From Phoronis australis (taxonomy: Eukaryota > Animalia > Phoronida), in NCBI GenBank assembly GCA_002633005.1, contig NMRA01000150.1, forward strand, positions 592,453-656,452: 64,000 nt of DNA. The letters run 5' to 3'. Under the pieces are notes generated by a model that did no database searches, was not told the origin of the DNA, and saw only the letters and a list, made by a program, of their open reading frames with translations. Every line of letters starts with the position of its first letter. Position 1 is the stretch's first letter. Of the stretch, positions 17,401 through 62,709 are shown in pieces. A program made the position numbers and the translations under genes.

Positions 17401-20400
17401 ATCTAAAAAGTAACGCAAACATGTTTTATAGTATTAGGAATTGTTTGAAATTAGGGCCAATATTCATTTCTTACCGATGCTATGCTACCCGTTTCATGAA
17501 TGGATAGTTCCCGACTAATGTCTTTAATGACATCTAGGTTCATATATGTAGCGCGCGCTTTCTGGCCACGTGCGTTCAACACGGAGTTATTTTTATTCAT
17601 GAGACAGTCGATGTGTCTACTGAATGGTCAGACCATAGTGGGACACGGTCGTCGCGAAAGTAGCAACGCTGTTGCATTCTTTTTGAAGCGCTGTGTTACT
17701 TTGAAGTGTATAGTAACGGCTAAATACAAAGGTAGCAGTGCGGCTGGTGATCTAGAAGACCCGTGCAAAACTTTTTTGATAAATTGAAGACGTTACTGTA
17801 GTTGAGTTTTAGGACTGAAGGTACGTCATTGTTCGCATGTACACGTTCATGGACTGGGCGCTTATTTCAGTAAAGTCTGAAAACATGTGGGGGGGGCGCT
17901 TATAGGGGCATGGGCGGTTATTACGGCGAATACGGTACTCTCAATACTATGATTCAAATTCTCCATCTGTTGTTTAAATTGGAGAACTAAAGGTAACTCT
18001 GATATTGCCAGTTAATGGGAAAGGTAAGTGCAGTTGTGGTTGAGTTGCAATAGATGGGAGTTCCTGGTTTTGGTGTTGTTGGGAAAGCCATCTTAAAGTG
18101 ACATGTATTTCAGAGTCGTGCGTCTTTATTGAATATTTACATGTGATCAGAACTCGGTTCTACCGCAAGGCAGTCATTTGCATAGTTACTCAGTTAAGTG
18201 AACGTCTCTGTACATGATGCAAGGTGTGTATCGTACTCGTCCGGGTTATGGCCCATGCTCGGCTTACTGCCCACCTCCAATTTTTCATGATCGAGACTTT
18301 CGTAAAAGTATCTGTGCTTCTGTGAACGTTCGTCGCACAAAATTAAAATTCCAAAACGTGCGCAACTCGCTTACCTTTCTGTGACAATCAATCAGTTTTA
18401 GCGGAACTGGGGTCTTGCCTAACTATGGCGGTAAAATACCCATATTGTTATGCCCTTTACTGAAGGAGACAATTGTTTCCTGTGGCTCACACGCGGAACT
18501 CTTGTACTGATTACTGAGACAGCGCTTGTGGAATGTATTTCATTTGCTGTAGAAGAACAGCGAAGCAGTACTTGACAAGGATATCACGTCCATGGCACAC
18601 CTTTATGTGATTCCCCGTGACACTACACGAAACCACTCACGCTGTTTGCGGTGCATCCACTTCTCTAGCTTTTCCAAGATCAGCATGATGAATTGTTCAG
18701 TTGAATTGCTGTTTATTTAAAACACTCCAATCAACAATCTTCAATGGTATATATTCTTAGTTACCAAACTGAGCACCCTTCATAAGCTATGTTTTGTCTC
18801 AGTTATGACAAAGTTCTACCAGATTTATTGTAATCATCTGTTTTTGGTCAGTGTGATGTAGCATGTAACATATGAAATGCTCTCTTGTGGGCATAAGTGT
18901 CCGTCCAATGAGAAAGATGCATTGGGTATTAATTTGCAGTTGGAAAGCTATATTTTTTATCAAATTTGTTGGCTTTCAGTTCTGATATAATTTGACAGTG
19001 TCAAAATGTCTGACTGTACAGACATGGAACTCTTATTTGCCTTTTGGGAACATGTTTTAATACGTCTGCTTTTGATGAACTTGTTCTACTATCTGTCAAT
19101 AGGTGTCACTGGAACTTAATGAAAAATCAATTAATGCTAGTGTCACAGATATATGTCAATTGATCTGCAGAGCAGTAAGGACTGCTCAGATGTTATGTTC
19201 TGTGTATGCAGCTGATTATAGTTTGGATCTTATGTTGATCATATGGACATTTTGAAGCTATCTAAATCTCACAGCTTTATGAATCATCTAACTCATGGAT
19301 TGAAGCAAGGTTTGTAAGATGCAAGCTATACGAATAGGACCTGGTTCTCGAACAGTCTAAAAAGTTGATTTTTTTGGCTTTTGGGTTTGGTTTTCAGTCT
19401 GCTCCTGAGCAGGCTATAGATTTCTGTCATCAGGTTTCAAGTTGTAGACAGATTTTTGGACTTTTAGTCGTAGGCTGATTTCATGAAACCAGCTAAGCCA
19501 TCCGTAGACTGCTTTTTGCCCAAAGACAAAGGCTCTTCAAGAGACATCTCCCCAACAGTTAAAGATGTATTTGCATGCTCCTAACTATGCTAATGTATAG
19601 CAGGAATTAAGCGACAATGCTATTTGAACATCATCTACACTAAACGAATTGCAGTTGTATTAATTACCAATTTCTTAATGTGAAAACAAAAAAATCTGCA
19701 AATTGGTGACCTTTGCAGTAATGATGTACCTTGGGGGCTCACATAACCTGCTTCATGCAGTGTTATTACCCAACACCCGGTCATGATACTTACTGGATAT
19801 GGTAGAGTGATTTGCAACGGATCATTTTCGACGCACAAGTCGTTCTTAAAAACATTTCACAATTTTCATCCTATTTCATATGATATGTTGTGTTTCATAT
19901 TCACATCGTTATATGTTGTGTTTCATATTCACATCGTTATATGTTGTGTTTCATATTCACATCGTTATATGTTGTGTTTCATATTCACATCGTTATATGT
20001 TGTGTTTCATATTCACATCGTTATATGTTGTGTTTCCAACCAATTTGACCATGCAATCACAGAGATAAGGAATTAGTGTGCAAGTTGTACTTTAAGTCAG
20101 TCCAAACCTGGACATAAACATGTTGTAATGTAACATTTAGAGCCAAAAGTTTCGGTGCATGTGTACTACACATAGTTGAACGGCATGATCAAGTGTTTGT
20201 GAGTGGTTGTATTTTTGCCTATCTTTAGAACAAAAGTTGATGCTATGTTGTTCTCAAACCAAACCATTACTAACTGTTAAGTTTCGTCTTGTTCAACCAT
20301 TCTGTGTTTAATTATGTTTCTTGCAATGCTCATATGTTATGTACAATATTCTAGCTAATTACCTTGTTGGCATATTTAAACCAGGATTTTAGCAAGTGAC

Positions 20401-23400
20401 TCATTTCTGATTTTACCCATTTGGTGTATATTTGCTGACGGTGGTGTCAACTGGAAAAGCCTGTAAATTATAAAGTATGCCAGCTACTGCTGTATCTAAT
20501 GCTGGGTAATGACAATGATTGGTTGGAATTCAGAACATGCCTGGCCAGATTTCAAAGTTGATCAAGAAAATTAGGTGACCAAAGTGATTTTTGTGCTGAG
20601 TTTGGGTTTAAGAAGGATTTTTCCAAGAAACTACAATTTGTTTACTTTAGGACATATACAGCATGAGTCATACTTTAACACCTGACAATGGCTCTCCCTC
20701 AGGTTTCAGTTTCACACGTGTTTAGACTGTGCCATGTATGTGGTGACAATTTTCTCAAACCTAAGTCTAGTGATCTGTTTTCATCTTCTCATATACTGCT
20801 GTGGTAAAATCTCACATATTTAGGATACCATATGGCGAACAGGTAATATTATTTTTTCATGAATGACATGTAGCACCAAATTAATGGTTTTCTGTGTTCA
20901 AGTTCTGCTCTACAGCAACCAGTATACATTATGCCCATGTTCAAGTTCTACTCTACAGCTACCAGCAGACATTATTCCAAAGAACTCTGGGCATTTGTTA
21001 AACTGTTAGAATCTCTTGAAAAATTGGAAAAGGGTCAATTTTGTTGATTATGGTTTGTGATATTTTACCCTGGCTTGTGTGTTGTTGAGTCACTTCTAAA
21101 GGATATTACGGTATGTGTTTCTTAGCTACAACCACAGACTCCCCTTCTTGTGCTGTATAATCCACTTGTTATCCATGTTCCAATGTGGTATAATCCACTT
21201 GTTATCCATGTTACAATGTGGTATAATCCACTTGTTATCCATGTTCTAGTGTGGTATAATCCACTTGTTATCCATGTTATGTTGTGGTATAATCCACTTG
21301 TTATCCATGTTCCAATGTGGTATAATCCACTTGTTATCCATGTTACAATGTGGTATAATCCACTTGTTATCCATGTTCTAGTGTGGTATAATCCACTTGT
21401 TATCCATGTTATGTTGTGGTATAATCCACTTGTTATCCATGTTCCAATGTGGTATAATCCACTTGTTATCCATGTTACAATGTGGTATAATCCACTTGTT
21501 ATCCATGTTCTAGTGTGGTATAATCCACTTGTTATCCATGTTATGTTGTGGTATAATCCACTTGTTATCCATGTTCCAATGTGGTATAATCCACTTGTTA
21601 TCCATGTTACAATGTGGTATAATCCACTTGTTATCCATGTTCTAGTGTGGTATAATCCACTTGTTATCCATGTTCTAGTGTGGTATGATCCACTTGTTAT
21701 CCATGTTACAATGTGGTATAATCCACTTGTTATCCATATTATGGTGTGGTATAATCCACTTGTTATCCATGTTACAGTGTGGTATAATCCACTTCTTATC
21801 CATGTTACAGTGTGGTATAATCCACTTCTTATCCATGTTACAGCACCAAGTGCACCCCTGTTGCTGAATGTGTCCAGCAATGCCACTGGTGTTGTGGTGG
21901 TCGAGTGGTTACCATCTGAGGTATTCAATAAGAGTCTTGATCGTTACGAGGTGCAGCTCACTGATAACAAAACTGGTGCCATCATCAATCGGACAAGAGA
22001 CGTGACAGACATGAAGGGTGAATATATACCGAAATACACATCAGTAAGTGTTCACCAACAGTGAGAATGTTCACTTGTTTTGTATTGATTGTTTCTTGCA
22101 ATCTTGTCGTATTCTCAGTGTTCCTTGACACCTACACCCATTATATATATTGTATATATCGTATTACAGTAAAATTTGTCAGTTTGAAATGGTGAAAAAT
22201 TAAGGAAAATTGAGGTGGGAGGCTGTGCCATATTTTAGATAGAGATAGTGTTGGCTATCCCAAATTCAAGAATTACGATGCACAACGATTATCATTTGTT
22301 CATTATACACTATGGGGATGCATGAAAATGTTTCATTGGCGTCCATTTTCTAAGAACTGCTAAGCTTTCATACTCTGTTGGTGTAAACCACTGTGTCCAA
22401 TATTTGAGAAATGTAATGAACATCTGCATTGTCCATATCCTGAGTTTTAGAATTAAAGAAAATTCGATTTGGCTTGAATGTGGGTATGTTTACAGACTGT
22501 CCTAAACTAGATATCTTTTGCCATTGTCTTTCAATTTGTAATATTCATAGTTGGGGGTCACTTGATAGTTTGTCACTTTCCTCAGCAGTAAAAGTGCAAT
22601 CAAACAAAATGAGTGACTGGAGGATGAGTAATGTCTACAGTAGTGACTGGTGGGTTGAGTGGGTGGGTGGGCAGGTGAGTAATGTCCATACAGTGACTGG
22701 GTGGGTGGGTAATGTCTACAGTATAGTGACTGGTGGATGAATAATTCTGTATAGGTACATTAGCGCCGTCACTGTTATGAATTGCAATATACTTACCAGG
22801 CAATACACTGTTATGAACCGCAGTACACTTACTAGGCAATACACTGTTATGAACCGCAGTATACTTACTAGGCAATACGTTGTTATGAACTGCAGCATAC
22901 TTGATAGGCAATACACTGTTATGAATCGCAGTACACTTACTAGGCAATACACTGTTATGAACCGCAGTATACTTACTAGGCAATACACTGTTATGAACCA
23001 CAGTATACTTACTAGGCAATACACTGTTATGAACCACAGTATACTTACTAGGCAATACACTGTTATGAACTGCAGTATACTTACTGGGCAATACAGTGAT
23101 ATGAACTATAGTATACTTACTAGGCAATACACTGTTATGAACTACAGTATACTTATTTGGCAATACACTGTTATGAACTGCAGTAAAGAAGTTATTGATA
23201 TCCTGCTACTTGATGCATTGTAAGTATTTTAGGAATTGTGTCAGCGTGCTCGGTAATTGTATCAAATGGGCCATTTTGTTGGCATTGGATGATTGTTATA
23301 AGAGGTTTCAGCTCTTGGTGATGTGTCATGACTCATCATTTTCAGCCAGAATTAAGCGGAATTGACCATCGTGATATGGAAACAATATTTTGTCCATGTT

Positions 23401-26400
23401 CATTTGGCTCCTACTGTCTGTTGAGTCGAGCAAGACTACACTAAGTATTGCTTTTCATTGCAGGCTCGTTTGACAAATATCACTGGTAACACTACATATA
23501 CTGTGCGTGTGAGAGCTGCTACAATCAGTTTGTTCTCCAGCCCTGAGAATCCAAAATTTATCTATGGCTCCTTGTCCAACTCAATAACGTTGCATTTACC
23601 AGGTGAGTTACCAAGATGGCTGTCTAGCTATTGAGTTTTAAGTGATGTCTCTCTGTGTATAGTGATGTCTCTGTGTGTTGAGTGGTGTCACTGTGCGTGT
23701 TGAGTGGTGTCTGTGTGTTGAGTGGTGTCTGTGTGTGTTGAGTGGTGTCTGTGTGTTGAGTGGTGTCTGTGTGTTGAGTGGTGTCTCTGTGTGTTGAGTG
23801 GTGTCACTGTGTGTTGAGTGGTGTCTCTGTGTGTTGAGTGGTGTCTCTGTGTGTTGAGTGGTGTCTCTGTGTCTCAGTACTTGGGACTTTGTTGTAATAC
23901 TGCTTTGACACAAGTCTTCTGTCCACACTCTTGTAGTTTGTACAATTATAGTTAGTCTACTGTAGTTTTAGACTATAGTTTGGATACCACGAACATGGGT
24001 TAAAGTTGAAGCTGCTCTGAACCTGTGTTCAGTCAAAGAAATTTAATCTTTTGATTTATACGGCTTACCACATAAAACTAGTTTCACCATGTTCCTTACT
24101 CAGATAAGTGATTCTGCGAATTGAATGTACAGTTGTTTTAAAATGACAAACCGAAATGTTGGGCCTGGTCTCTTGTAACAACAAACTAGTAGCAAGGAGT
24201 GTACTAGTAGAGGAGAGTTTACTCCGCCATTTTATCATTCGCCGCAATGGTCACTGGTCGAAACACTAGCGCTCCAAGCGGTGAATAATCAACACTTAGG
24301 AGCGCAGTCCGAACAAAGTAAACACTCATAAATTCATACTTTAATGTCGTTCAATGTGCAATAAAATTACTATGTGATTGAAAATGGTTAGAATACATAA
24401 ACTAACATCCACTTACAATAAAATGAGAAAGAAAATGTGTATTTTAATCAATATTAAAGTGTATTTGTTTTTATTCTCTTGAAGCTCCCTTCAAAATCCA
24501 TCATCATGTTTGAGTTCTTAACACGGCAATTATCGTTCCTTATAACAGTTCATACCTCCATGGACTACATAATTTGAATGATTTCCCCTGGGGGTTCAGA
24601 GGGGAATTCCCCCCAGGTGCCAGCTAAGGGGGTACCAGGCAAAAACCAGGTGGGCGCCAAATGGGTGTTGACCCCCTCCCAGGGGTGTTACATGGGAGGA
24701 GTGCTAAACATGTAAAAAACAATGGGTATGTATGCCACATGGGTGTTGAGCCCTCCCATCGTCACACATTTTGGTTGCTCCTCTGACCATTGACAAACAT
24801 GTTGCTCCTAGCTCACTGCTGGTTTCATCTCCACCCATGTTCCCTATTCAATGCACCAGGCTACTAGCAATGCAGACAGTTGTTTTGTGCAGTGCGTGTA
24901 ACACAAGTGAGAAGAAGAAAGCAAGGCAATTCATCATTACCACAAAATCGTAATACAATTTTAGAACATTCCATTATTTCTTAGACATGCCAGTATAGGG
25001 CTCAATCCCACTCTCCCACTCACCAACAGTTACAAGTCACTTGCTAATCTGTAGAATAGCTCAGAACTTACAAAATGAAGTAACATTGAGTATATCATCA
25101 CTCATAACTAGTCAAAGTTCAAAATGTCATGTCAAAAAATCAAGAGGTACTGAACAGCAATCAAAACATTCACTACCCACATAGCTTCATACAAAACTGA
25201 ATTAAAAAGACTTGGATGATAAAACCAAAATTTTATTTGTATACCCACTGTTCCTATTATCAATAATAGTAAGTATTTCAGGTAAGTTAAAGCCAGACCA
25301 CAAGGTCATATCTGATACCTAGCCACAACTGGGGCTTAAATAAATCACAGTCTCCAGAAACTTACAAAATAGGCAACACATACACCAACCAATACAACAA
25401 GAAAATCTGACCAACCTTGTCAATCTCTATTAATTCACTAGTAAATAACAGCTGCACTTTTCACCAAATAAATGCGTTATAAATAAAGCTGAAAACTAAT
25501 TTACTCACAGAGGTGTTTGTCATCGAGAAGCAAAATGATATGGATAACTTGGGTTTAACAAAATTTCAGCCCACCACTCAGACTCTGAATGATCCATCAG
25601 TTTCACTTTGGCTCTCTCCAAATCACAGGCTAACCATTCATAAAATGTTTCAATCTGTTCAACCTTAGTAAAATAGGAAAACCAAATTTTGACTAATTGT
25701 CCTTTCTACACGTGATGTTTCAGTACTTTGTGAGACGATAATCAGAAATGCAAAAAAGCCTATTCCAGAGCTGTAATATAATTTCCCGAGAACTTTTTGA
25801 CCCTGACATCTTCATTTTTGGTGGATACGGGACATCAAATATTGTTTGGGCACTGCAGTCAATACCAGCTTGTTCTTCATCCATGAACATGGGCTCCTCG
25901 AAGTAATGAGAGCATAAGTTGCAGTTCTTGGTCAAATAGGCTGCATCTCTATTCAGAAGGTCAGCTCCCAGTGCTTGCACCTGAACAGAAATCAATGACT
26001 GAGAGACTTAGGAACAAACCTCATACTCACTAGGTTCACAGAAGACTGGTAGCCTACACTAAAGTACACTACACTACAGAATTCCTGTCGTACTGTGATT
26101 GTGATAAAGACAAAAGCGTTTTGGTGTCAACTGAAAAAAACTCGGACTCAAATGTCAATCCACGGATATTTTAAAAGGGCCGCGCCCCCGCATCATTGAC
26201 ACATATAATTAAGTTTTCAATGACGCACTGCTTAACTTAATTGGTCCAACTGGCACATTAAAATTATGTTGATTTTTTCACCTTTTCACCAAGACCCACA
26301 GATTCTCTAACTTGACTCATGACAGACTTGTGGCCCTGTGGCTGTGATTGTGCCATGGCCATGTCACCAGTCATATTACCCATGGCCATGGGTATCATGT

Positions 26401-29400
26401 TTTTCTAAAATTATCCCTGCGATCGTACGGGTGACATTTTGATTTGGAATTCATGGACTGCAAGTATCCAAAAAGGTGGCAGCCCGGTTGTACAGTAGGC
26501 CTAGCGAGCCTACACCGGCTGCAGACAACAGTGGCAACTGGACTGCGATGGACTTGTCTAACAACCGTGAACGGAACACACAAAATGAAAGCCAGTAACA
26601 GATAATCCTTACCTTTCTATATCCTTAGGAAACCTAAAAAATGACACGTCTGGGGTTTTCGTGGATGAATTCATACAATTTATCGCACTGCAAAATGCGT
26701 CCCTCCCCATTGTTTTAGCGCTTCCTGGTTGACATTTGCTTAGTCACCACTTGGCGGCGCTAGTAGTAGCGGTAACAGCGAACTCACAAGTGAACTCTCC
26801 TATACTACTACACTTCTTGCTGGTAGTCTGCACATCACCTCTTGGAAGGAGACTAGTTTTGTAAATGTAACAGTTCTATATGTTCAAGATGTGTTTTTAG
26901 CATACTCAATCACTTAATTAATTACATGGTCAGCTGCATATTGAAGTCTGTGTCTTTTTGAACCCATAATGTCATCTCCAGTCAAATTGGCTTGCTTGAA
27001 CACTTTCAAGTCTAGTTGGTCTTCACTTAGTAACTACACTATTTCAGACGGTGCCTACAATGCTGGTCCTGGCACTGGTGGACAACAGGCTAACATGGCC
27101 TATATAGGAATAGGTGTTGGACTGTTGGCTGTTCTTGTGCTTGTTCTACTGGCATTTGTCATTATCAAACGGTAAGTGTTATATAATCATATACCATTAT
27201 CAAGCTGTAAGTGTTATATCATATACCATTAAACACAGCTATCAGTAAAAGCATGAAAATTTTGAGACATACAGTTGAGTCTAATACTGGAATAAAAACT
27301 TACAAATTAAAGTTAGCCTAGCTGAAGTTTGTAAGTTTTTATTCCAGTATTAGACTCAAACTTTATCTACCAACAGCTATCAGTGTTCAGTGTGGAATCA
27401 TGACATTGTTGCATGCTTCACATTCAAATGAAACCTTTATCAGAACTTTAAATTCTTTTCTCTCTATTCTTATTGATTCATATCAAGATGATTTGTTCAG
27501 AATGGTAGCATACATATTAAACTATAGATATTGCATTCTTTAATATTTTTATCAGTTGTGCTTATTTATTTATTTATTTAAACTTCTTTAAAAGACTGGG
27601 TGACCACTTCAGTGAATACACTGATTTTCAAGTGGACCCAGTCGGAAATAATTACATGAAGTAAAATACAGACAGCTATGTACAATTAGATTGAAAAGAT
27701 TAATAAATAAAATAAATTAGTATAAAAATTTAATAGTTAATATGTACAATTAGGTGAATAAATAAGATAAAACAGAGTAAAGTAATGATGAGCTGAGGCG
27801 TACAGTCCTGAAGCGCACACTAAGTCCCAGTTATTTTGTTTGAAGAGGTGGACATTGGATGCGTTCACGAACATGGTAGTCCACTGTCCATTTTAAGCAA
27901 CAGCACCTCTGTAGGCAAAAGTTCTTTTGCCGCAGTTGTTTTTAGGTTTATCTGGTACCAGGCAGCCATAAACACTCGCTCTAGTATTGTAATTGTGAGA
28001 ATCTGTGACTGCCTTGAATTTAGTAGTAAGGTATTTAGGTGTGAGGTTATTTGTGGCTTTGTACACCATAAAGTTTAAATGAAAGGCACGCCTGTCAACC
28101 AGGCTACACCAACAAAGTTTATCGAGGAGGTCAGAAGGGCGACTATAGATGAGTATCAGCCCCTAGCCTTGTTTTGTAATTTTTGAAGTCTATCCTGCAG
28201 GAATGATGCACAATTACCCCACACAACATCACAGTAATCAAAATGTCATACAATTAGGCTCCAGTACAGAGTCTGAAGAGTAGCCTGATCACCATAGCTC
28301 CTTACTCTGTAGTCTGTACAAAAGCCCAATTCGGTGAGAAACTTTCTTGCACACATACTGTACGTGTTCGTCCCATGATAAGTTATTATCAATCAGAACA
28401 CCCAGATATTTTTACTTCTCAGTTCCTGCCAGTTGGGTGCTGTTAATAGTAATGGCGATGTTGTTTGGAGACAACACAGTCAGCCTCTGTGTGCTACCAA
28501 TAGTCATAACGTTGGTATTGAGTGACTTTCAGCCGTTAAGATGCATCATAATAGTCAGTACTACCAAGTGAGCTTTGTATGACTGACAGGCTTCAGAGTG
28601 CATAGGTTTACACTGTCACGTTGCACTTACATAATTATACGTTGTGTGTGAGTGCATATCGTCATTTCTGTCTTGGGTGTCCAGTCTTCGCTGCTGTATC
28701 TCCTAATTTAACCCTTTGCAGGATCATAATGAGATTTGTAAAATGTGCTCCTATGCAGCTGACGACACACAACGACACGTTTCGAAATCACCTGACATTG
28801 GCTATTCCCCCTTGTGGCAATTCTATTTTTATGTATTCTTCTGTCTTCGAAGCTCCTTGATGGATTTTCATGAAATTTGGAAAATTCTAATAGGGAGATA
28901 ACTTCCCCTTTGTATTTTCTGACATATTCAACATATTCTGTGCTGCTTATTCACCATTTTTATGAAATTTTGCAAATGCTTTTCTCAGGCAGATCTAAAC
29001 ACCACTGGGCCCCCTGGTGACAATTCTAATTTTTATGTTAATCTGTACATCTTTATAGTTCCCTGATATAATTTCATGAAATTTAGGTTGCTATTAAGTA
29101 TACGACAGCACTTTTTTATGTTTGGACAGATCAGACATATTATATACCACCCAGGAGCAATTTTTATTGTTTTCAAGTCTCTTACTTGACATCAGCCTCT
29201 CTGCCTCCACTGGACTGCCCAAAGAATCTTTAATAATATTGCCATGTTTTCCCACTGACCGCAGTACAACTGATATTGTTTATAGGGCGGTCATTTACTC
29301 TGGCAACTTTTTTTTCATCCCCTGCTGTTTCTCCAGAAACCTTTGCAGACTATTTGTGTACCTGGCATTAGATGAAATTCTGCGCAACCTAGTGGTCATA

Positions 29401-32400
29401 CCACAAAATGCCCTTAGAAGCATACTGTTTACAGTGTCGCTGTGGGTGCATTTCAACTTGCTGTTCTTGTTCAGTTTGTTATTCTACTTTCTCACTGCTT
29501 TTGACTGATGTCTTAACACGCATGATCTTGAAGTCACTTTATTGAAGCTGTTTGATTGCAAAAGCAGGCTGTTACTCTAGCTGGCACCAGGGGGGGGGTT
29601 TACTTCCGTAAACCAGATCACTGCTACGTTTTGTATGAGATCCAATCATGACCTGGCCTTGGTGTTATATTAAAGCAATGATCCAGAATTCTTAAAGGGT
29701 TGTTTGTGTAAACAACCATAATGCTTTCTGAACTCAATAATTCTACATTCTGACTAGTGTGATCCTGACCAGGGTGGTCAATTATAAGGTCAAGGGTTTT
29801 GATGGAGGTGTTTCATGTCAGCATTAATCTGATGGTACGTATCATGTCCTGTGTCTGTGATGAGATTGCAGGGATGCTCCATTTTTTGTTGAATTAAAAA
29901 ATGGGTGGCTGGTGCTTAAGGACATTCAACAGTCATTAGAATCAAGTGTAAAAACAAGGCATTGAACACTCTAATTTTCATTGTGCCTTGTTTGTATAGC
30001 CTTTTCTTGCCAATCACCTAGTCATGGCTGAAGAGACAACATTCTTGACTTTGTATGCTTTATTTACCCTGTATGTGCTTCTGTTCTACTGCAGTTGTGT
30101 TTCAAATCAAACTGCTTGTATCTGTTTATATGAGTTTGCTCGTTTTGACTGCCCAGCAGACAGTGCTGCCACCTGTGATGAATAAGGTAGTCTATGTTTT
30201 TGTTACTCTACGCATCTCCACCAGGAGGCGCACAGAAGCTGACGAGGATCTGTGGATTGAGGTAGATGACGAGACAAGTAGCGCCAGGTTTGGTAAGTGA
30301 TTTGGTGTTGTGCCGCATAACAGGGGCACAATAGGGCGTGTTTGGCATGCTGTCCTTGTCCTGTCAGTCCATCTGTCTTTTGCCTGAGCTATGTCTTTGC
30401 ACTGTGTTTCTTCTCGCTATACTTTGCCTGAACATGCCTTCAGCTTAGTTCCAAAAAATGTGCGAGACTTCCATTCCTGCGCTGCACCATTATTTTTCCA
30501 TGGAGTGTGTGTTCTGGCTTACAATTTTGTTGTACCAATGGTGTACAGGAGAAAAAAAGCAGATGGTGTGCATGACGTGGATTGCTGGTTTGTGTCAAGG
30601 ATGCTGCTGTATGTAATAAGCAGGATGGAAGTCTAGGCCGTTGAACAAAGCAGGTTTTTGGCACATTCTCTGTGTGAATTTATCTTAGTGTTGTGTTTTT
30701 ATGTTGTTTTCTTGTGTATCCAACCACAGGAGACCGACATACCAAAACGACGACTTCTGGATCGATATATCCCAGCCCTTATTGTCAGAGTTTGGTGAGT
30801 GAGGGCGCTAGTTGCATGCTGGAAGTTAAGGGGTTTGTTACAATTGCATAACAGCAGATGAGTAAATTGACAGTATAATGCTGCAAGTACAATTTATGTC
30901 ATTTGTGACGGGGTAGCTGAGTCAGTCTTTGATGTCACATGACCAATTTATATTCATTGCTTTTGCCATGATCACTCCCACAGTTTGTCTTTTTGGAAGA
31001 TAATGAATACGCTGTAGTTCTTTACTGAACTAACATGAACATAGGGTAACACTGCTTGGTCATTGTATTTTAGTCGCTGTGTTTGGTCATCTTATATGTA
31101 CCGTGTGTCGGGGGGGGGGGGGNNNNNNNNNNNNNNNNNNNNNNNNNNNNNNNNNNNNNNNNNNNNNNNNNNNNNNNNNNNNNNNNNNNNNNNNNNNNNN
31201 NNNNNNNNNNNNNNNNNNNNNNNNNNNNNNNNNNNNNNNNNNNNNNNNNNNNNNNNNNNNNNNNNNNNNNNNNNNNNNNNNNNNNNNNNNNNNNNNNNNN
31301 NNNNNNNNNNNNNNNNNNNNNNNNNNNNNNNNNNNNNNNNNNNNNNNNNNNNNNNNNNNNNNNNNNNNNNNNNNNNNNNNNNNNNNNNNNNNNNNNNNNN
31401 NNNNNNNNNNNNNNNNNNNNNNNNNNNNNNNNNNNNNNNNNNNNNNNNNNNNNNNNNNNNNNNNNNNNNNNNNNNNNNNNNNNNNNNNNNNNNNNNNNNN
31501 NNNNNNNNNNNNNNNNNNNNNNNNNNNNNNNNNNNNNNNNNNNNNNNNNNNNNNNNNNNNNNNNNNNNNNNNNNNNNNNNNNNNNNNNNNNNNNNNNNNN
31601 NNNNNNNNNNNNNNNNNNNNNNNNNNNNNNNNNNNNNNNNNNNNNNNNNNNNNNNNNNNNNNNNNNNNNNNNNNNNNNNNNNNNNNNNNNNNNNNNNNNN
31701 NNNNNNNNNNNNNNNNNNNNNNNNNNNNNNNNNNNNNNNNNNNNNNNNNNNNNNNNNNNNNNNNNNNNNNNNNNNNNNNNNNNNNNNNNNNNNNNNNNNN
31801 NNNNNNNNNNNNNNNNNNNNNNNNNNNNNNNNNNNNNNNNNNNNNNNNNNNNNNNNNNNNNNNNNNNNNNNNNNNNNNNNNNNNNNNNNNNNNNNNNNNN
31901 NNNNNNNNNNNNNNNNNNNNNNNNNNNNNNNNNNNNNNNNNNNNNNNNNNNNNNNNNNNNNNNNNNNNNNNNNNNNNNNNNNNNNNNNNNNNNNNNNNNN
32001 NNNNNNNNNNNNNNNNNNNNNNNNNNNNNNNNNNNNNNNNNNNNNNNNNNNNNNNNNNNNNNNNNNNNNNNCACTATGAAATGATTAATGTTGCCATTGC
32101 TTCATGCAGTAGTTCTGTCATGTAGTCATTTCTGTAGGATGTAGTGTTGTCATGAATTCGTTGCTGTATACTGTATGGTATAGAGCTGTCATGAATTTAT
32201 TGCCATGTAGTGTGGTGTTGTCATGAATCCATTGGTGTTTGGGCTGTGTTCTGTAGTGATATGATCGTGAAGTCATTATGAAAATCAAATGATCATTCAG
32301 AAAATCTATCATTGCTTTTGAGATGTCATCTTGAGCATTTATAACAAATAAAGTTTAATAACGTTACTAATGACGTGATTACCATGACGATGTTAATAAA

Positions 32401-35400
32401 CTTTTACTAAAAACATTGCCATACGAATTAATGACAGATTGGTAATAGTCAAAAATCAAATTCTGTTGGATGTGTGCTTACAGAAAATATATTACTTTCA
32501 CAAAGTTAAAATTTATAGTGCTGTAGGTGAATTGGCTAATACGCAAACTTGCTGTAACCTTCATCGGTTTTTGAATGACATGTGTCAGCTAACTTCATTG
32601 CAGTAGCTGATTTCTTAGAAATGATTTGTGTGTTTTAGATTGACGTGATGTTTTGTGCTGTTGACCTGTCAACAGGAAGTTGTGTGTAATTCTTGTCCCT
32701 TGGCTCTGTGCTGGTGGTGGACTGTAGTGCAGCCTATATGCTTCTGTGACACTGTTGTGTGTGCAGTCTACATGCTTGTATGACCCTGTTCTGTGTGCAG
32801 TCTCTACAATATTGTGTTATATGCTTGATATTATTGCCTTACAGTGTCAATAACAATATATTGCTGTATAACTCTTCAAATGCTCCTCACAGTGTTGTAG
32901 ATGCTCATTACTTTTCAAAACAATGTCTGATGGTAGCTGCAGTGCAGAATTTGAACATGGAAAACCTTTGATTTGGTTCTGAATGTCCTTTACGAAAAAA
33001 TGAGAGAACAAAATTTCACTTTTCGACCATGTTCTGTCCTAAGCTGCAGGGATCTTACATATTTTGAAGGAAACTCTCTCTAGGATTGGTTGTTAAATTA
33101 CTATGATATTGTTTAAAATGAATAGGGAAAGGAAATTCTAAGGGATTGGGTGTAAAATTAATGTGATATTAGAAATGAATAGGGAAAGGAAAGGGTTTTG
33201 GTACTCTCCTTTAAACTCACATCTACATAGAAATACAATCATTGTGTTGAAAAAGCATGCATAGTGTTGAATAGTTTCAACAACTGCCTGAGAAAGCCAA
33301 TGTTGTAAAGTGGTGTTTGAAGTAGTAGACTGTAGCATCCGCTGTTTCAAATGTTTTCAATTGAAAGTTCAACTTATTAAGACTAGCTTGAGCATTATGT
33401 ACATGTAATATTGAAAACTTCCGCTTTCTTCTTCAAAAAAGCAACCTAAAAAGTGATATTATAAAGGCTGTTAAAAACATGATACATTGGGAATGATATG
33501 AAGATTGCAGATGCTTAACACAGAGGCAGTTGAGTTTTTGATTACTGTGTAGTGCAAGTCTGGTGTAAATCAGTGAGGTATACAGGGTTGGACTCCTTTT
33601 GTGTGGGACTGTTGGCAGTTATTGGTATTGACTAGTGACATGTTATTGCAGATGATAGTGAAGTTGATTCAGTGCCTGTGGAGAAATGGAGGGAACACGT
33701 GGCCTCACTGCATGCAGACAGTAACTTGAAGTTTGCACAGGAGTACGAGGTGAGTATGGCCCAGAGTTAACACGGATATTGCACGCAGACAGTAACGTGG
33801 CATTTGCATGGGATTATGAGGTAAGTGTAGACCAGAGTTGACGCACACACTGCATTCAGACTTTAACTTAAAGCTTGCACAGGAGTACAAGTACGACCTA
33901 GTGTCAACACCCATACTGCATGCAGACAGTAACTTGAAGTTTGCTCAGGAGTGCGAGGTAAGTATGGCCCAGAGTTGACATGCATACTGCATGCTGACAG
34001 TAACCTGAAGTTTGCATGAAAAAATTTAGAATTCAAGGTAAGTACAGCCTTGTGTTGACATGCAACTTGTAGAGGCTCATACTCGGGGTTAGTGCAGTCT
34101 GAAATGACTCGCTGTAGATATAGACCGACACGAACCTTGTCGACTGATTGCAGTATCTAGATTTATCATCGCACTATTAATCATTTTTTGTCTGATTGCA
34201 ATCACTATCTACTAATCATTATTTGTCTAAGTGTAATCATTTTAATTTATTGTGTTACCAACTGTATAGTGCATGTCATTGTAAGGAAGCGTGCTATAAA
34301 CATGTATTCACATCATGGCATATTTCTCTTCAATTTGTCTTTATTCCTTATAGGAGATCAACATTCAGCAAGACCTAACCTGCAACCACTCTTTAGACGT
34401 GGAGAACAAGGCTAAAAATAGATACACAAACATCCTGGCGTGTAAGTTGAATAATTACAAGTTTGTCTACATGTAGTCTGTTATTGTTCACACTCATTAT
34501 TCACAATGGAGCACCAGTCATCATCATCATCATCGCCCTTGCCTTCGCCACTGCCCTCGCCATCTCCCTTGCCCTTGCGCTTGCCATCTTCACCGTCACT
34601 ATCTTCATCGTATTCGCAATTCACAATGGAGCTTCATTTTCTGATTCAGGTTGTGACATCTGTTGGCTCCAGTATTTTCATAATTGCAATGCGTTGTGGA
34701 ACTCCAGTTTTTGGTTCAAATTGATTGAATCATTGTAATACGCAGTTCATGCAGTATTTTCTTTTAGGCAAACATGTCGCTTTGCAATTTTATGCTACCG
34801 ACCTTTTTAGGCACCAAAAATTTCAATGCAGTGCCTCGCACCACTTCAGTATTTGAACTAATAATTGGGCATACCATTCAGTGTTTGACCTGATAATTGG
34901 GCATACCATTCAGTGTTTGTCCTGATTATTGGGCATACCATTCAGTGTTTGACCTGATAATTGGGCATACCATTCAGTGTTTGTCCTGATAATTGGGCAT
35001 ACCATTCAGTGTTTGACCTGATAATTGGGCATACCATTTAGTGTTTGACCTGATAATTGGGCATACCATACTGTGTTTGATCTGTAACATTTTTTTTACA
35101 TTTAATTGTGTACTTTGTCAAATGTGTGCAAGTACCGGCACATTAGTCGTGTGTTTAGCTCCCGTTGTGTCTTTGTGTTTGATATGGACCTTTAGCAGGA
35201 GTTGGCAGCCACCCACCCACCTGTCATTGCAGATTGCACTATTCAGATGTAGTGAAAACTAACGTTTTCCAAGAGGTTTGTCTAATACGGTTCTTTTGCA
35301 GCCATTCTAGTCATTCACGTAAGAGTTTGTATCAACTTAGTATGTGATATTGGGGTGTGTAGATACTTGTATACGACTTCTATAGGCAATCAAAAATCAT

Positions 35401-38400
35401 AAAGGAATCGCATGTCCTCTATTTCTTCCTAAATGCTGTATAAAACTTTTTAAGCTCTTGGTTGGATTACCTGTTTACACATTACAATTAATTGAGGGCC
35501 CTCTTGGAAAGCAGTGCTATCGCTGAAGAGGCCTGCCCCATTTTAAATATTACATTAAATAAAATAAAATAACTGAAAATAAATTGTATATAAATTAACT
35601 CGTTTGCAAAAAATGGTTACGAAAACCCGTAGTATGTAGACAGCAGTTTATACTTAACTAATTGGTATGTTGACAGGAGTTTATACTTCAACTAATTGAT
35701 ATGTAGACAGGAGTTTATACTATAACTAATTGGTGTTTAGACAGGAGTTCATACTATAACTAACTGGTATGTAGTCAGGAGTTTATACTGTAACTAATTG
35801 GTATGTTGACTGGAGTTTATACTTTAACTAATTGGTATGTAGACAGGAGTTTATACTGTAACATATTGGTATGTAGACATGGAGTTTATACTTTAACTAA
35901 TTGGTATGTAGACAGGAGTTTATACTGCAACTAATTGGCATGTAGACAGGAGTTTATACTTTAACTAATTGGTATGTAGACAGGAGTTTATACTTTAACT
36001 AATTGGCATGTAGACAGGAGTTTATACAATAACTAATTGGTATGTAGACAGGAGTTTATACTTTAACTAATTGGTATGTAGACAGGAGTTTATTCTCTAA
36101 CTAATTGATATGTAGTCAGGAGTTTATACTTTAATTAATTGATATGTAGACAGGAGTTTATACTGTAACTAATTGGTATGTAGACAGGAGTTAAATATAC
36201 TATAACTAATTGGTATGTAGACAAGAGTTTATATTATTATTGTCTGGTAATGGTTCATCAGATGTATTTTCCACTGTTTTGCAGATGACAAAACACGAGT
36301 TGTGCTGGCTCCATTGCCTGGGAAACAGAAAGGTTCTGATTACATCAATGCAAACTATGTCGGCGTAAGTGAACTCCCTACCTCTTACTCAGATATGAAA
36401 ACTGTCACTTGTAGGGCAGTAGTTTTCAAAAAAAAGTTGACGGAAACATTGACTGTATCACTCCAAGTTGCCCCAAATGTGGCAATTTGCTCTTCTTGTC
36501 CCAAATGCAACTTAGATCAGTGTTTGTGAATTGATGGTACTGGCTGTACATGTATTTTTCTCTTGACGAAGTACTAACTTGTGTTCCTCACAGTCGTGCT
36601 GTTTGGGTTATGAAGTCTGCAATCATTGGAAACTTATGAAAGACCATCTTGCCTCATAATTTCTTAACTCTTCTATGTATAATAGTGTAAATGTCCAACG
36701 CCGTTTCTTATGTACTACAAATATAGTGCATTATATCTATATCTATATCTATATATTATTTATTTCTCAACTACTCTATGTATATACACCACCTTACTAT
36801 TTTGCCTCTCTTTTGATTGGGCTGAACCTAACGCCAAAACAATCCTATGTTTTTCAGTAACATACAGTGGTGCAACAGAACATTTATCCTTTGTTTATTT
36901 GTGTTCACACACAAATATTCTTCCACTGCGAATATGCCAGAAAGTTCCCTGGTACAACTTAAAGCTGTTTCAAAACCACCACAGTCTTTCAATTGTTGAC
37001 CTGTTTTCTCCATTTCATTTTGGAACTCGCAGCTGGTTTTCTCAACTTCTAAACTAAACAAATTTCTGAAAAATTGCGTTATAGTATGTCATCTTTATGG
37101 CAATATTAAACTGAATTGAATTATTATTATTATTATTATTATAGTCGCCTGTAAATGCAACTAGCCGTGTCATGCAGACTTCATTCACAATGTTGACATG
37201 ATGTTGGTAAAGCTACTCAAATGTAACTTAAGTTTGTAACCAAGAAACTAATGCAACTGTTAACTCTATGTTAAATGAGATATGCTATGAACCATTTTTA
37301 TATGCTCACATAATGTGTGGTTGCCTATTGTCGCCACTTTATCCGGGCGTCTTGGTGTCCAGCATGTGTTCGCTGTAGATCTCAAAAACCGTGATCGGAT
37401 TTTGTTGAAATTTGGCACATGGTTGTTGGGCATCACTAGGACGGTTCATGCTACTTTTCAATCTTACTAGTCCCCTGGGGTAAGGGAGGCGTAGCTTTTA
37501 TGAAACTTGATATCAGTGTGTCGGCATGATTCTGTATCTTTGGGGGAAGAGCGTTTCCATGTGATATCTAGAGAACTGATGGGCTAATTACATTGAAACT
37601 TAACATTATGAGATTGTGCCAGCTCCAGGTGGTTTTCGTCGGGACTGGACAACTGCTCTGGCTATTTCGTGTGAGGGTTATTCGAGTTGATATGTAGAGA
37701 ACTGAGGGAAGAATTTCACTGAAAGTTGACATGGGGGTATGTTTGGGCAATGTGGCTCTACCAAGTTTACAGATAGATTTGGCCACTGTAACATCCCTTA
37801 AGGGTCATTTAGATTTCGACGTGAGACTTTTCAAGTGTTATTCAGGGGAAGAGCATTTCCCAATGATATCAAGAGAACTGACTGACGGATTTTGCTAAAG
37901 CTTGACACGGAGGTATACAATATTGATGTGCATCAATTAATTTTTGGAAGGATTCCACCACTGCAGCACCTCCTAGTGGCTATTTTGGGAAGAATTTCCG
38001 GGTGATTGATCTTCAACCAACTGAGAGATTTTAATAAAATGTAAATCCATCACCATTAATTTTTTCCACAGATTCAGCTACTGCAGCACGTCCTAGTGAC
38101 CATTTTTATGCGCCCACATATTTATATGTGGACGCATTATGCCGTCATCTCTGTCCGTCCGTCCGTCCGTCCGTCCGTCCGTCCGGCGTCCGGCGTCCGC
38201 TGCTCTATCTCCAAAACCCTTTGACATACGTTCATGAAATTTGACACATATGTTCCATTCATGAATGGGACGGCATGTGCGAACTTTCAGACGGATCCGA
38301 CTACCGGTGTGCCCCCTAGTGGCAATTTTAGTTTTTTACGCTTACCTTTGTATCTTCAAAAGTCCTGAACGGATTTTCATGAAATTTGGTATGTAGGCAC

Positions 38401-41400
38401 CTATTAGTGAAATGACGCTATCCTCCCGTTTTCAGATGGATTCGACATAGTTTGCGCCACCTAGTGGCCATTTTTAGTGTTTTCGAGTCTGTTTTTGTGC
38501 GTCCACCCCTCTATCAACCAAACGGCTCAAAGGATGATTGTGAAAATTGGCATGCATATGCTTNTAGTGGCAATTTTAGTATTTTACATTGACCTCTGTA
38601 TTTTCATAGGTCTTCAGGTGTATACTTTGTGTTACTTCGTGACTGTGAAGGAAAAGTTCCAAGTAGAAATTTGTTTCTGGCATTCTAATGCTGTGCTAAT
38701 CTCGTATGTTGGTAAATTTGTTTTTAATTCTATGTTTCTGTGGTGTTTTAAGCAACTGAGGTATAGGATGTGCTTGTATTATGAAGATTACTCACATTTT
38801 GCCCCTAGCCCATTGAGGAGACAATGACCATGCCTTTCCATTTTGCAAAGTATGCCCTCTACTGGCCACTTTATGGTACCAATAAACAACCCTAGAAGGA
38901 TACCGTATGCGGTGCAATTGTGGGCGCATTTCAACGCTCCGCGTTGCTCTTGTGTTCTCAAGGGGTCTTCATGTGTTGCATGGGAAAAAGAAATTCTGAA
39001 AAATGATTGACCACAGACATGTGTGAAGCTAATGATTGACCACAGACATGTGTGAAGCTAATGATTGACCACAGACATGTGTGAAGCTAATGATTGACCA
39101 CAGACATGTGTGAAGCCAATGATTGACCACAGACATGTGTGAAGCCAATGATTGACCACAGACATGTGTGAAGCTAATGATTGACCACAGACATGTGTGA
39201 AGCTAATGATTGACCACAGACATATGTGAAGCTAATGCGCTGAACCCTTCGTTTTTGGGATGGCTTTGTCCACTACAGCATTGTGACAAGGAGCTTCTCA
39301 TGTGTTGTTTGGGGGAAGAGTGTTTCTGGATGGTATATAGAGAACTTATTGATGGATTTCAATGAAACTTCACATAGTCATGATCATATGCTGGCACCTT
39401 TTTGTGGGGATTTCTGTTTTCAAGTGTTGTTTAGGGTAAGAGTGTTTCCAAAATATATCTATAGAATTGATTGACAGATTTCGAAGAAACTTTACGCAGC
39501 TGTATATGATTACAATGTGCCGACAGTATTTGGTTTTTGTGCTGATTCGACTACCACAGCACCTCCTAGTGGCCCTTATAAATGTATTTTTGCGATACAA
39601 CGTGGACACATGTCTACGCTCCAGCGTTGCTCTTGTTCATTTGTTTTAGTGTTTTAATTCTGCCTGCTTGGTATTAAACATAATCCCCTTGAGTACAAAC
39701 ACTGCATAATCTTATAGCAAACTTCTTTCTCTTTACCAGGGTTATGACAATTCCCGGGCATATATTGCCACACAAGGTCCTCTTCCAAACACAATTGATG
39801 ATTTCTGGCGTCTTGTGTGGGACCGCAATAGCGTTGTTATTGTCATGATAACAAATCTCTACGAGAAAGGAAGGGTAATATTTTGTGAAGGAAGTTGTTT
39901 CGAGTGTGTTCTTTATGTTAAGTTATCAATACTTAGCGTATTTACATTCCATACGACACTAGGCAGATCAGATTTTAGACTCTGTGTGGTATATTTTATA
40001 AGTGCAATAATCTTGAGTTTACGTGCTTACCATGTAGTTAAGTTTTTACACTTATTCGTATCATGCAATCTTATCCATCTCAATGACTGCTCTTTTATCT
40101 TAGAAAAAATGTGACCAATACTGGCCTGAAGAAGTAGGTCAAGAGGCTACTTATGGGTTCATCACTGTTAAGCACCTGCAGAAGACAGAGCTAGCCTTCT
40201 ACACAGTACGAGTGTTCTCCATAAGGAATAAAGGCAAAAAGGTACTTGAGTCTCTTGGTCACTTATATGAGACCTGTGTACCATACAAAAAATGTGGATT
40301 CGTTTGGAAATTTGACTGGTAGTATGCAAGTAAACTTGACCAGGCAAAAATATGGAATTTCGAAGCAGATTATTTACCTACAACTGATAAGCTTATAATA
40401 GAAATTGAAGATTTTTAAACAAAAAATTCAACATATATATTTATTTTATCCAAAAAAATTAACTATGGATTCACAAACTTTGCTTCGATTCATTCTAAAT
40501 TTTGTAGCACAATTGATGAATCGTAAGGCGTCTTCTGCAGATATTCACCATCTACTGATATTCATTGTCTTCTACTGAAGATATTCATCGTCTTCTGCTG
40601 ATATTCGTCTTCTGCTGATATTCATCGTCTTCTAGTGAAGATATTTATCGTCTTCTGCTGAAGATATTCAGCATCTTCTGCTAATATTCATTGTTTTCTG
40701 TTGATATTCATCATCTTCTGCTTCAACTATTTTTGGCTAAATATGAATAGTACTTACTGTTTACAAAATGTCGATGTATTCGGAGTTGTGATGAAAATAG
40801 CTTCTGAAAGAATCCAAACTTTTTTAAAACGTTTAAGAACATGTCGTCTGCTGTAAGACATTGCACTGTGCAGATTCATGAGCACTTTCTTTCGGATTAG
40901 TGTTTAATAAGGAGCCTGAGCTTTTCACTACTGTAAACGCAGTCCACCACCTAAACACAGAAAATTTTGAAAATTGGTTGTCAATTCACAATGCATTAAA
41001 CTTTTTCAAAGGTATGTAATGGGGAACTAAACACAGTTTCAATACGCCAACATGATGAAAAGTTTGAATTTTTGTTTGGTCTCTACATGAAAATTTTTAA
41101 ATTACTGAAAAATATGCAAATCTGGTGTCATAAATATGCAAATCTGGTGTCAAAAATAGTTAAATGTTGTTGCTGATTTCACCAGCTAATATGTGTTGAT
41201 TTCCATTAATTTAACTTTTAAATATTCTATAGCCAACCATCTGTTGAGTAATGAAGTGTTTTAAATGTGTACCAAGGTATTCATGGAACGCATGTAGTGC
41301 ATAACTTGCCATGTTATGTTTCACTAGCCATGTTCTGAATACTTTGTTTCACTAGCCACCCGCTGAATACTTTAGGTTTCACTAGTCATGTGCCGCATGC

Positions 41401-44400
41401 TTTGTTTCTATCACTTGCTGTCTGTATGCATTGTCTGCCAGCATAGTGCACTGCCTACTAACCCCCTGTTCTCTCTATATTCACAGAACAGACAGGAGCG
41501 ACTAGTCTATCAATTCCATTACACTGACTGGCCTGACCACGGGGTGCCTGATTACACGCTACCAGTTCTGTCATTCATCAAAAAGTCACATGCCAGAAAC
41601 AAGAACACCAGTCGACCAATCATTGTTCACTGCAGGTGAGAGTGGAAATCTTGGTCAAGGATATGATATATTGCATGCTATTAATCTAGAATTTGAGCAA
41701 AACTATGTTGTCCCAGAGAAGCCCGTTGATTTGATAGTTTCTGGGGCTTGGATACGACAACATGAGTGTCACTTCTCTTGGTTTGACAGCATAATATGTT
41801 TCACACACCCTTGCTCACATCTTCATGACACATTTTTATGCGCCCAAATATTTATATGTGGGCGCATTATGCCATCATACCCGTCCATACGGCATCTGTT
41901 CCTATGTTCATGAAATTTTGAACATTTTTTCATTTCGAAATTGAACAGCATGAGCAAACTTCGGACGGATCCAATTATTGGTGTGTCCCCAAGTTGGAAT
42001 TTTTTGTTTTTTACGTTTGCCTGTGTATCTTCAAACATCGTTATCGTATTTTCATAAAATTTATCATATAGGCATCTATTAGTGAAGTGGCGTTATTCTC
42101 CCATTTTCGGACGGATTCTAGTCAGTTTGCGCCACCTTGTGGCCATTTTTACTGATTTCGAATCTGTTTTTGGCGTCCACCCATCTATCAACCAAACCAC
42201 TATAAGGATGATTGTGAAAATTGGCATATATTATGTTCTTAGTGGGAAGAGGAAGGTTGTTTCGTTTTTTTGCGGTCATATCTGTATCTCTTAAACCCAC
42301 TGCCGGATCTTTATTAAATTCAGCAATAATTATTTGGCATTCATATGAAGTTGACTATAGACGAGAATTTTAGGGGGGCCATGGCCCCCTTGGCCCCTTC
42401 TAAATCCGCCACTGAACGACAATGATTTTCAGACAGATCCCATGAACATTGTGCCTCCTAGTGGCAATTTCATTTTTCCCATTTTCCTCTGTTTCTCTAA
42501 AGTTGCTTTACGGATTTTTGTGAAATTTCATAAATAGATTTTTCTTACAAAACGATGACATGTTCCTGTTTTTGGATAGATTCAATATAATTTGCACCAT
42601 CTAGTGGCTATTTTTATGATACAAATAAACACCCCCCAGAAGCACACCGTTTGCGATGCATTCGTGGGGTGCATTTCAACGCTCTGCGTTGGTCTTGTAC
42701 TGATACTGATACTTATTCACGACACGAGCATTACCAACTGATTTGTAATCTGCATTTTCACCATTTATACTACTTCTGCATCTTCAGCACATGCTCAGTT
42801 GATCCGTGTGTAATGTTACTTGAAGAAACATAATCAGTGACTATGAGGTATGAATATTATGCAAAATTGAAAAGAATTACCCAAATTTACCTTAAGCAAC
42901 AGTTCAGCAGTTGTCTGGAGCTTTTTAATATGCGGGTGCATACTACTGTCATCTGTGTCATCTGGCATCCACTTCTGTATCTGCAAAAACCTCTTGACAG
43001 AACTTGATGAGATTTGGCAGATGTATTACAGTAACTATGAAGCTGACGACAGATGACGAATATCAGACTGGTCCTCTGTACCCCCCCTCCAGTTAGAATT
43101 TTAGTATTTTACATTTGTCTCTGTACTGTCAGAGTTATTTGGTGGATTTTCATGAAATTTATTGAGGAAACAACAACACTTTTCCATTTTCGGACGAGTT
43201 TAAGGTATTGTGCGCCACCTAATGGGCATTTAAAGATGTTGTGTTCTCTCTCCGCCAATCCGTAGGATTATTGTGAAAATTGACAGATGTGTTTATGATG
43301 AGGAATCCGCTGCTGTTGATTTTCGGACAATTTTGATTACTTGAGCACTCCCTAGCGGTGATTCTTTTTTGCGTCTACGGTTATATCTCAACACTTTTCA
43401 GGATCTTCACGAAATTTGGCAGGTGTGTTACTCTGGAGCTGACAGCAAATGACGGATGATTTTCAGACCAATCTGAGTATCGCTGCAGCCTCTATATTTT
43501 TGAGTTCCTTGATGGTTTTCCATGAAATTCGGGAAATAGGAGATGATGATGCCTTTCAGTTTAGTTGTAATTTGATATTTATGTGCGCCACCTAGTGGCC
43601 ATTATTGTTTTTTCATGTCCGCCTCTTAACCTGCCAAATCGCTCTGAAGATCATTTTAGCGATTTTGTTTTGTGTCTGGTGCTACATCTCCCTTATCCTT
43701 GTCTGAAATTTTGCACTTGTTTCCCTGAGTCAAAGGCTGCTGACAACTTTTAGACTACCTAGACTACCGATGTTGTCGCTGGTGACATTTTCAGTTTTCA
43801 CGCGAATTTATAATCATAAGTTTCTTTGATGGTTTTCCATGAAATTTAGCAAACGAATTTCTATTATGAAGAGGCCAACACATTTTCATTGTGGAATGGA
43901 TTCCACGTATTCTGCTCCACCTACTGGCCATTTTTTACTTTAGAATTGTCTACCTTAGTCAAACCATTGACAGTATCATTATGAAAATTTACAGAATATG
44001 TTTCTACTGATAAGTATAACCGATATGGGTCCAACTACTGTGGCGCCACCTTATGACATTTTTGCATCTGCGGCTGTATTTCCTAATCCCCCTTGAAAGA
44101 TATTTCAGAAATTTGTGGCTAAAAAGAACAGATGAACAAATCATACTGCGGCTTCGTCTCTTAATGACAATCTGTTTTTTCACATTCGCCAGTCTGTAAT
44201 CTTTAGAGTTCTTCGGCGGATTTTAGAAAATTAAAATATTTTTTTCGGAAGATGACAATACATTGCCGTCTAATAGTGATTTGCAATAAATTTATGAAAA
44301 CAAATTTTACTGTTTTACCTCATGTCAAAGCCAATGCCTTCAAAAAGTCAATCGTATCCAAAAATAACCTCAAATTGATTTTTTCTGAAGTTAAAACAAA

Positions 44401-59803: not shown

Positions 59804-60057
59804 CTACGAATAAAACTTGCTTCTTCTCAACTGCTTTGTTTGAGGTGAACTTTGCTTTTGGTTTTTGACTCTTGGAGACTGGGAATGTATTTTCTGAAAA
59901 ATTTCTGGAAATTTATTGTCAGGGAACAATGTTTCAAGAATGCCTTCCAAGAAGACGTATATAAGCCTTCTATTCATCTTTCTATGTTGAAACATTTTGA
60001 AGATTCGTAGAACTCCTTTTCTTGTAGTCTCACTTCCAATTAGGTGGCGCATTTCAT
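59804..60057 (-). CDS. SNX13: Sorting nexin-13-like, last coding exon (C-terminal nexin domain), copy 1
   Basis: Minus-strand tttcag| DEMRHLIGSETTRKGVLRIFKMFQH...NRRLIYVFLEGILETLFP, recognisably the SNX13 C-terminus. Confidence 0.88.
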
Positions 60058-62705: not shown

Positions 62706-62709
62706 CTGA

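Follow-up and report, generated by a model that had tools for sequence, protein, structure and literature searches.

RNA evidence for a duplicated either/or pair of juxtamembrane exons, and a candidate sorting-signal switch, in a Ptp99A/R5 receptor phosphatase gene of Phoronis australis

The receptor phosphatase gene on the plus strand of the 64,000-nt window (the whole stretch of Phoronis australis DNA analysed here) very probably carries a duplicated pair of juxtamembrane exons, A and B, of which one or the other is spliced between the transmembrane (TM) exon and the wedge exon. We tentatively suggest that, given such a pair, the swap may toggle an endocytic or endosomal sorting signal, and judging from the comparison of orthologous sequences a dileucine sorting switch would be a better reading than the phosphotyrosine YxN mechanism that the initial annotation of this DNA had put forward.

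Results

The gene is an intact spiralian Ptp99A/R5 receptor phosphatase, and its initial assignment to the Ptp99A type is upheld by the tree, the named matches and the motifs. A protein search with the D1 exon returned Ptp99A-like proteins across animals, the best at 74% identity and none of them a near-identical record, and the full-length matches carrying names were mostly Ptp99A-like. The tandem PTP domains grouped with Ptp99A, PTPRG and PTPRZ and not with LAR. Rows for the trees were hand-picked from the fetched matches for lineage spread; a 24-row tree grouped the window protein weakly with the Lingula protein (86/80), and in a quick tree of 20 rows that included LAR-like outgroups it fell within the R5 clade, where it belonged to a spiralian subclade (SH-aLRT 94) and was sister to the Logan protein P0175 (SH-aLRT 96). 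P0175 and Lingula were also its top-scoring relatives. The D1 active motifs KNRY, WPD and HCSAGxGRTG are all intact.

The ectodomain exons (Ig-like and FN3; 7560..23602, plus strand, boundaries resolved in part) include two with an fn3 domain above the cut-off, and the Ig_3 match in the upstream exons is weak and falls below it. Further along the same strand lie the TM exon (27048..27171, 124 nt, ending in phase 2), whose donor is common to A and B, the wedge exon (33652..33749, 98 nt, starting in phase 1), whose acceptor is common to A and B, and 14 exons past the wedge (34354..54732), which by translation and motifs encode D1 and D2 and are open to the stop codon. A search of PDB sequences with the wedge exon found a single weak match, to a phosphatase (2nv5_A, E 0.042). 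Just past the TM exon, a near-perfect 42-nt inverted repeat (27275-27359) is matched by many reads originating at other genomic sites and looks like a small repetitive element. The intron following the wedge exon holds about 4.5 degenerate 71-nt copies of the 3' half of that exon with its donor (33706-34016), from which no junction was listed in the RNA runs.

Exon A (30225..30292, plus strand, 68 nt) and exon B (30730..30794, plus strand, 65 nt) both run from phase 2 to phase 1 and each have a CAG acceptor, with the donors TTTG/GTAAGT and TTTG/GTGAGT, respectively. A GT-AG intron of 437 nt containing 22 AGs (30293..30729, plus strand) separates them, and an assembly gap of 949 nt (31123..32071) lies in the intron between B and the wedge exon. 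Coordinates, lengths, acceptors, donors and phases were all as first described. Translation likewise bore out a YQN in exon B (30740..30748) and no tyrosine in exon A, which has no dileucine either; B further contains DISQPLL (30764..30784), a predicted acidic dileucine-type sorting motif with Asp at -5, Gln at -2 and Pro at -1. An aligned core is DLWIEV in A (30247..30264), DFWIDI in B (30752-30769) and DFWIEL in P0175, which thus carries the core common to both exons. The pattern acidic-W-I-[DE]-[VIL] was found in just 1 of 68 orthologue segments; it resembles the LIR-type W-x-x-hydrophobic motif, which we take to be a candidate likeness.

The reading frame is open in both TM-A-wedge and TM-B-wedge, and the prediction that including both exons or neither breaks it was confirmed by translated junctions that hit early stops: with A and B together a stop codon falls within the wedge exon, and with both skipped it is the first codon past the junction. 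The skip (27171 to 33652) brings three consecutive stops directly after the membrane segment, and its product would be a tail-less receptor if the RNA escaped decay. Scanning the DNA of the TM-to-wedge intron outside the hidden 949 nt of the gap turned up 51 candidates, 56-77 nt long, that are open and run from phase 2 to phase 1. Six of these had a GTRAG donor, namely A and B, versions of the two with starts shifted by 3 nt, and two candidates unrelated to them (27985-28040 and 28272-28333), neither of which had a listed RNA junction.

Three raw RNA runs with the same species label (X1-X3, about 18-19% of each) and one contig run (X4) were mapped to 26900-34500, and junctions with fewer than 3 reads or fewer than 2 start places were left out of the table. 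All four junctions predicted for either/or splicing were found in the reads. TM to A was crossed by 27 reads (X1/X2/X3 13/9/5) and A to wedge by 21 (8/5/8), each also by a contig, while TM to B had 7 reads (3/4/0) and B to wedge 6 (1/4/1); from the wedge to the next exon there were 19/10/16 reads. All junctions were GT-AG and in a single direction. The proposal would have failed had only one exon ever been spliced in, and junctions of both A and B were read. Above the 3-read threshold, the runs listed neither an A-to-B junction nor a TM-to-wedge skip. Set against the definition of mutually exclusive exons in PMC5740500, the A-to-wedge junction (21 reads) bridges B and the TM-to-B junction (7 reads) bridges A; inclusion of both exons shifts the frame and no A-to-B junction reached the 3-read threshold; and the two exons are homologous, of 68 and 65 nt, and of the same phase 2-to-1.

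Exon A is the major form in these samples and B the minor one, B accounting for 13 of 61 junction reads (21%) and A for about 79%. The share of B by run was 16%, 36% and 7%, which did not differ significantly (chi-square p 0.08, on pooled and non-independent counts, as a single read may count at both junctions).

It is very improbable that the pair is an artefact of alleles assembled in tandem, or that exons hidden in the gap make other combinations productive. The window does contain assembly gaps and a likely haplotype duplication elsewhere, and both B junctions were flagged 'between: not known' (with no inserted letters listed), with 107 loose read ends. However, A and B differ at most residues, both were joined to the same TM donor within the single runs X1 and X2, and one X4 contig bridges TM-A-wedge-next contiguously with no letters between. 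Furthermore, the flanks of A and B are without a long repeat, which argues against alleles in tandem. The likely haplotype duplication concerns another gene: a sorting-nexin C-terminal exon (Nexin_C) occurs twice on the minus strand with the same translation (59807-60085 and 62455-62733), in blocks 94% alike over 1.9 kb that flank a gap (60715-61160), and these are likely two haplotypes assembled in tandem.

Mutual exclusion by steric hindrance needs a branch point no more than about 50 nt from the upstream donor and was rejected, because the A-B intron is too long and contains many AGs; the AG-free zone before B is 39 nt. For docking-site/selector RNA structure, the sequence outside the gap, which hides 949 nt, was scanned in 8 region pairs, of which 0 gave helices better than those of 20 shuffles (best 3/20), and no strong inverted repeat was found at exons A and B. 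An RNA with a stop far upstream of later junctions is a substrate of nonsense-mediated decay. The both-in and both-out forms have stops far upstream of many later junctions and would thus be decay substrates. Exclusivity would likely come from splice-site competition together with nonsense-mediated decay of the both-in and both-out RNAs, and frame incompatibility with decay is probably the remaining simple explanation; forms with fewer than 3 reads per run are invisible in the table, so that decay and strict exclusion at the level of splicing give the same picture.

The initial claim of an exon duplication held in shuffle tests of both protein and DNA. The likeness of A and B had a shuffle p of 0.0004 at the protein level (0.002 with ends fixed) and was reached by 0 of 10,000 shuffles at the DNA level (0.0005 with ends fixed). 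The peptides align without gaps over their first 13 residues, sharing R-x-T and then D-[FL]-W-I-[DE]-[VI], and both end in Phe. Among the 5 identical residues in these 13, three have silently different codons, one is Trp and one has an unchanged codon, so that 3 of the 4 degenerate codons differ silently. Because identical residues differ at silent sites, the duplication appears old and the shared residues look selected.

Of the two copies, B is probably ancestral and A derived, since the [YF]-Q of the family and the QPLL of the closest relatives are kept in B. In comparisons with 62 orthologue segments, exon B outscored A in 35 cases and scored lower in 16. No A-type exon was found among the orthologue proteins searched; when the wedge exon with the in-frame sequence flanking it was the query of a homologue search, neither of the 2 candidates proved a match, and the same held for all 114 candidates obtained when P0175 residues 575-700 were compared with shorter proteins. 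Orthologue isoforms were surveyed in 10 clusters with 61 members (7 without the wedge, 2 starting past the segment) and a further 10 clusters comprising 40. Of these 20 clusters, 0 had two full juxtamembrane segments as alternatives, and 4 had optional inserts at one edge of the juxtamembrane exon: inserts of 6-7 aa at the linker-wedge junction in isoforms of Owenia, Lineus and Littorina (P0123, P0124-P0126 and the P0028 cluster) and one of about 12 aa at the membrane-linker junction in Branchiostoma (P0180 cluster). Membrane-side variation apparently also occurs among wasp orthologues.

These optional inserts at the linker-wedge junction bear on the alternative that the swap tunes the phosphatase directly, through D1 dimerisation, contacts between the juxtamembrane segment and D2, or Ser/Thr phosphosites. 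Some ten residues separate the ends of A and B from the wedge region, and vertebrate R5 phosphatases vary in the same part of the protein (PTPRG exon 14 and PTPRZ1 exon 16, in the portion of PMC11215419 consulted). Nevertheless, the wedge itself is on a constitutive exon and the homologous Lingula segment is predicted to have no confident fold or contact, and we consider direct tuning unlikely.

Tandem arrays are frequent near the splice sites of the gene: of the 23 arrays in 26900-54800, 12 are no more than 60 nt from such a site, where permutation gave a mean of 5.7 (p 0.002). The cut-off of 60 nt was picked after inspection, and the reverse test by boundary had a p of only 0.07. Five arrays overlap a splice site, a possible route to exon duplication.

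The pair might be real but near-neutral, or might tune only the length or charge of the linker while the differing halves drifted. We regard this as credible but less than probable. In its favour, exon copies may arise easily in this gene by way of such arrays. The D-[FL]-W-I-[DE] core (present also in P0175) and the R-x-T site are supplied by whichever exon is used, the segment is poorly conserved across orthologues and modelled with low confidence, and usage did not differ significantly among the three runs. On the other hand, QPLL has been kept in B through a duplication diverged at silent sites, A having replaced it with an acidic Ser/Thr run; moreover, strong splice sites and open frames are kept in both exons, and both are used.

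The initial annotation had read the pair as a switch toggling a YxN site. pY-x-N is the Grb2 SH2 consensus. From 71 orthologue ids, leaving aside 2 that were skipped and 1 duplicate, came 68 distinct R5 juxtamembrane segments; past the membrane, 51 of them carry the motif basic-x-[YF]-[QH] (FQ 36, FH 6, YQ 9). The aromatic residue is thus Phe in 42 and Tyr in 9 of the 51, and Asn follows at +2 in none. YxN occurs anywhere in the segment in 1 of the 68 orthologues, compared with 8.8% of 21-mers drawn at random from the fetched proteins, so that no conserved Tyr-x-Asn of the kind expected of a Grb2 dock is seen among the orthologues. YQN in B is the family [YF]-[QH] motif with an incidental Asn, and the motif has been lost in A.

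It is therefore improbable that B adds a phosphotyrosine dock for Grb2-type SH2 domains that A removes, as predicted earlier: although YQN is in B, absent from A and followed by acidic residues, the family has Phe in most members and never Asn at +2, the sister protein P0175 has no YxN in its juxtamembrane segment, YxN is common by chance and occurs in 7 copies in the cytoplasmic part of the B isoform, and the tyrosine of B stands just 6 residues from the membrane. That part of the first reading is not supported.

The acidic-then-LL segment of B, mentioned in the same reading only as an aside, is the part that relatives keep. QPLL was found in 2 of the 68 orthologue segments, those of Lingula (ISQPLL) and P0175 (ELNQPLL), and no others, and in 0.03% of random 21-mers. 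The acid at -5 is Asp in B and Glu in P0175, and Lingula has Asn at -5 and Asp at -6. As described in the part of PMC3418312 consulted, the dileucine consensus is [D/E]xxxL[L/I], with the acid of TYRP1 at -5; in tyrosinase EKQPLL, replacing the -2 Gln or the -1 Pro eliminates binding to the adaptor, and the protein then goes to the cell surface. B departs from the canonical spacing [DE]xxxL[LI], having Ile at -4 and Asp at -5, and the TYRP1-type variant (acid at -5, Gln at -2, Pro at -1) is present in both B DISQPLL and P0175 ELNQPLL. An AlphaFold model of the Lingula protein P0122 (53-row alignment) has pLDDT below 50 at residues 492-512, including ISQPLL at 507-512, which would fit a short linear motif, although the low pLDDT in this segment may stem from poor alignment depth and not from disorder.

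Several points count against a sorting role. Besides departing from the canonical motif, B relies on Asp, and in the OCA2 tests a Glu-to-Asp change lost AP-3 binding and greatly reduced AP-1 binding (PMC3418312, in the part consulted), so that Asp is the weaker acid; Lingula lacks the acid at -5; and QPLL is present in two relatives only. The looser pattern P-hydrophobic-hydrophobic occurs in 20 of the 68 segments, and QPLL may thus be a general feature with another role.

Discussion

Duplicated exons used one or the other are a known kind of arrangement, and the A/B pair extends it to a Ptp99A/R5 phosphatase. As far as PMC5740500 was available, 377 (60%) of the human mutually exclusive exon clusters have lengths not divisible by three, and like the tandem-duplicate exons described there, A and B are homologous, of similar length and equal phase, have junctions to the flanking exons and shift the frame when included jointly. 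Human mutually exclusive exons mostly encode structured parts in the same account, whereas A and B encode a linker predicted with low confidence. The supplement of PMC5740500 includes clusters in PTPRS (an FN3 exon) and PTPRM (a catalytic exon), and the 10 of its files that were searched contain none in PTPRG, PTPRZ1 or Ptp99A.

The pair also resembles exons 17.1/17.2 of Drosophila Dscam1, an alternative, membrane-level pair in a neuronal Ig/FN3 receptor whose choice was found by experiment to affect protein localisation; however, the Dscam1 exons encode the TM segment itself, and A and B change the cytoplasmic linker only, where an effect on sorting is inferred (PMC12081453, in the part consulted). 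Closer in descent are exon 14 of PTPRG, with 29 aa past the TM, and exon 16 of PTPRZ1, with 7 aa in the wedge, which belong to the same R5 subfamily and vary in the same region but are in-or-out cassettes, the portion of PMC11215419 consulted describing no duplicated pair; PTPRG exon 14a serves as an alternative start for a cytoplasmic form (PMC11215419). In the part of PMC2687788 consulted, ptp99A is named once, in a gene list. The remark in the initial annotation that no description of such a pair was known to it for Ptp99A/R5 agrees with our literature search, which found no duplicated either/or pair for these phosphatases, subscription papers and FlyBase-type annotation being outside its scope.

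The putative motif of B shares the Q-P-L-L core of the TYRP1 and tyrosinase signals and the -5 acid of TYRP1, but has Asp, and its LL lies 19 residues from the membrane compared with the 6-11 typical of lysosomal signals (PMC3418312, in the part consulted), so that it is a predicted motif.

Considering these results, we propose the following scenario for the candidate sorting switch. The juxtamembrane exon would have been duplicated in tandem long ago, giving two exons that are spliced one or the other. Clathrin adaptors, with AP-2 or AP-1 the likeliest, would recognise DISQPLL in B and carry the B-form receptor to endosomes. The major A form, whose catalytic domains are identical, would remain on the cell surface for longer. 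That this lineage-specific duplication serves as a trafficking switch, by which a surface or an internalised phosphatase would be chosen by tissue or stage, is a stronger proposition and one that we hold as rather doubtful.

The scope of the finding is narrow, being a single gene in one non-model lineage with a function predicted from sequence. Its interest lies in an RNA-supported either/or pair in the R5 subfamily, where the literature search found in-or-out cassettes only. The two natural tails offer a simple means to probe the role of the R5 juxtamembrane linker. Since both edges of the juxtamembrane exon vary repeatedly across orthologues, the R5 juxtamembrane segment appears to be a recurrent site of tuning.
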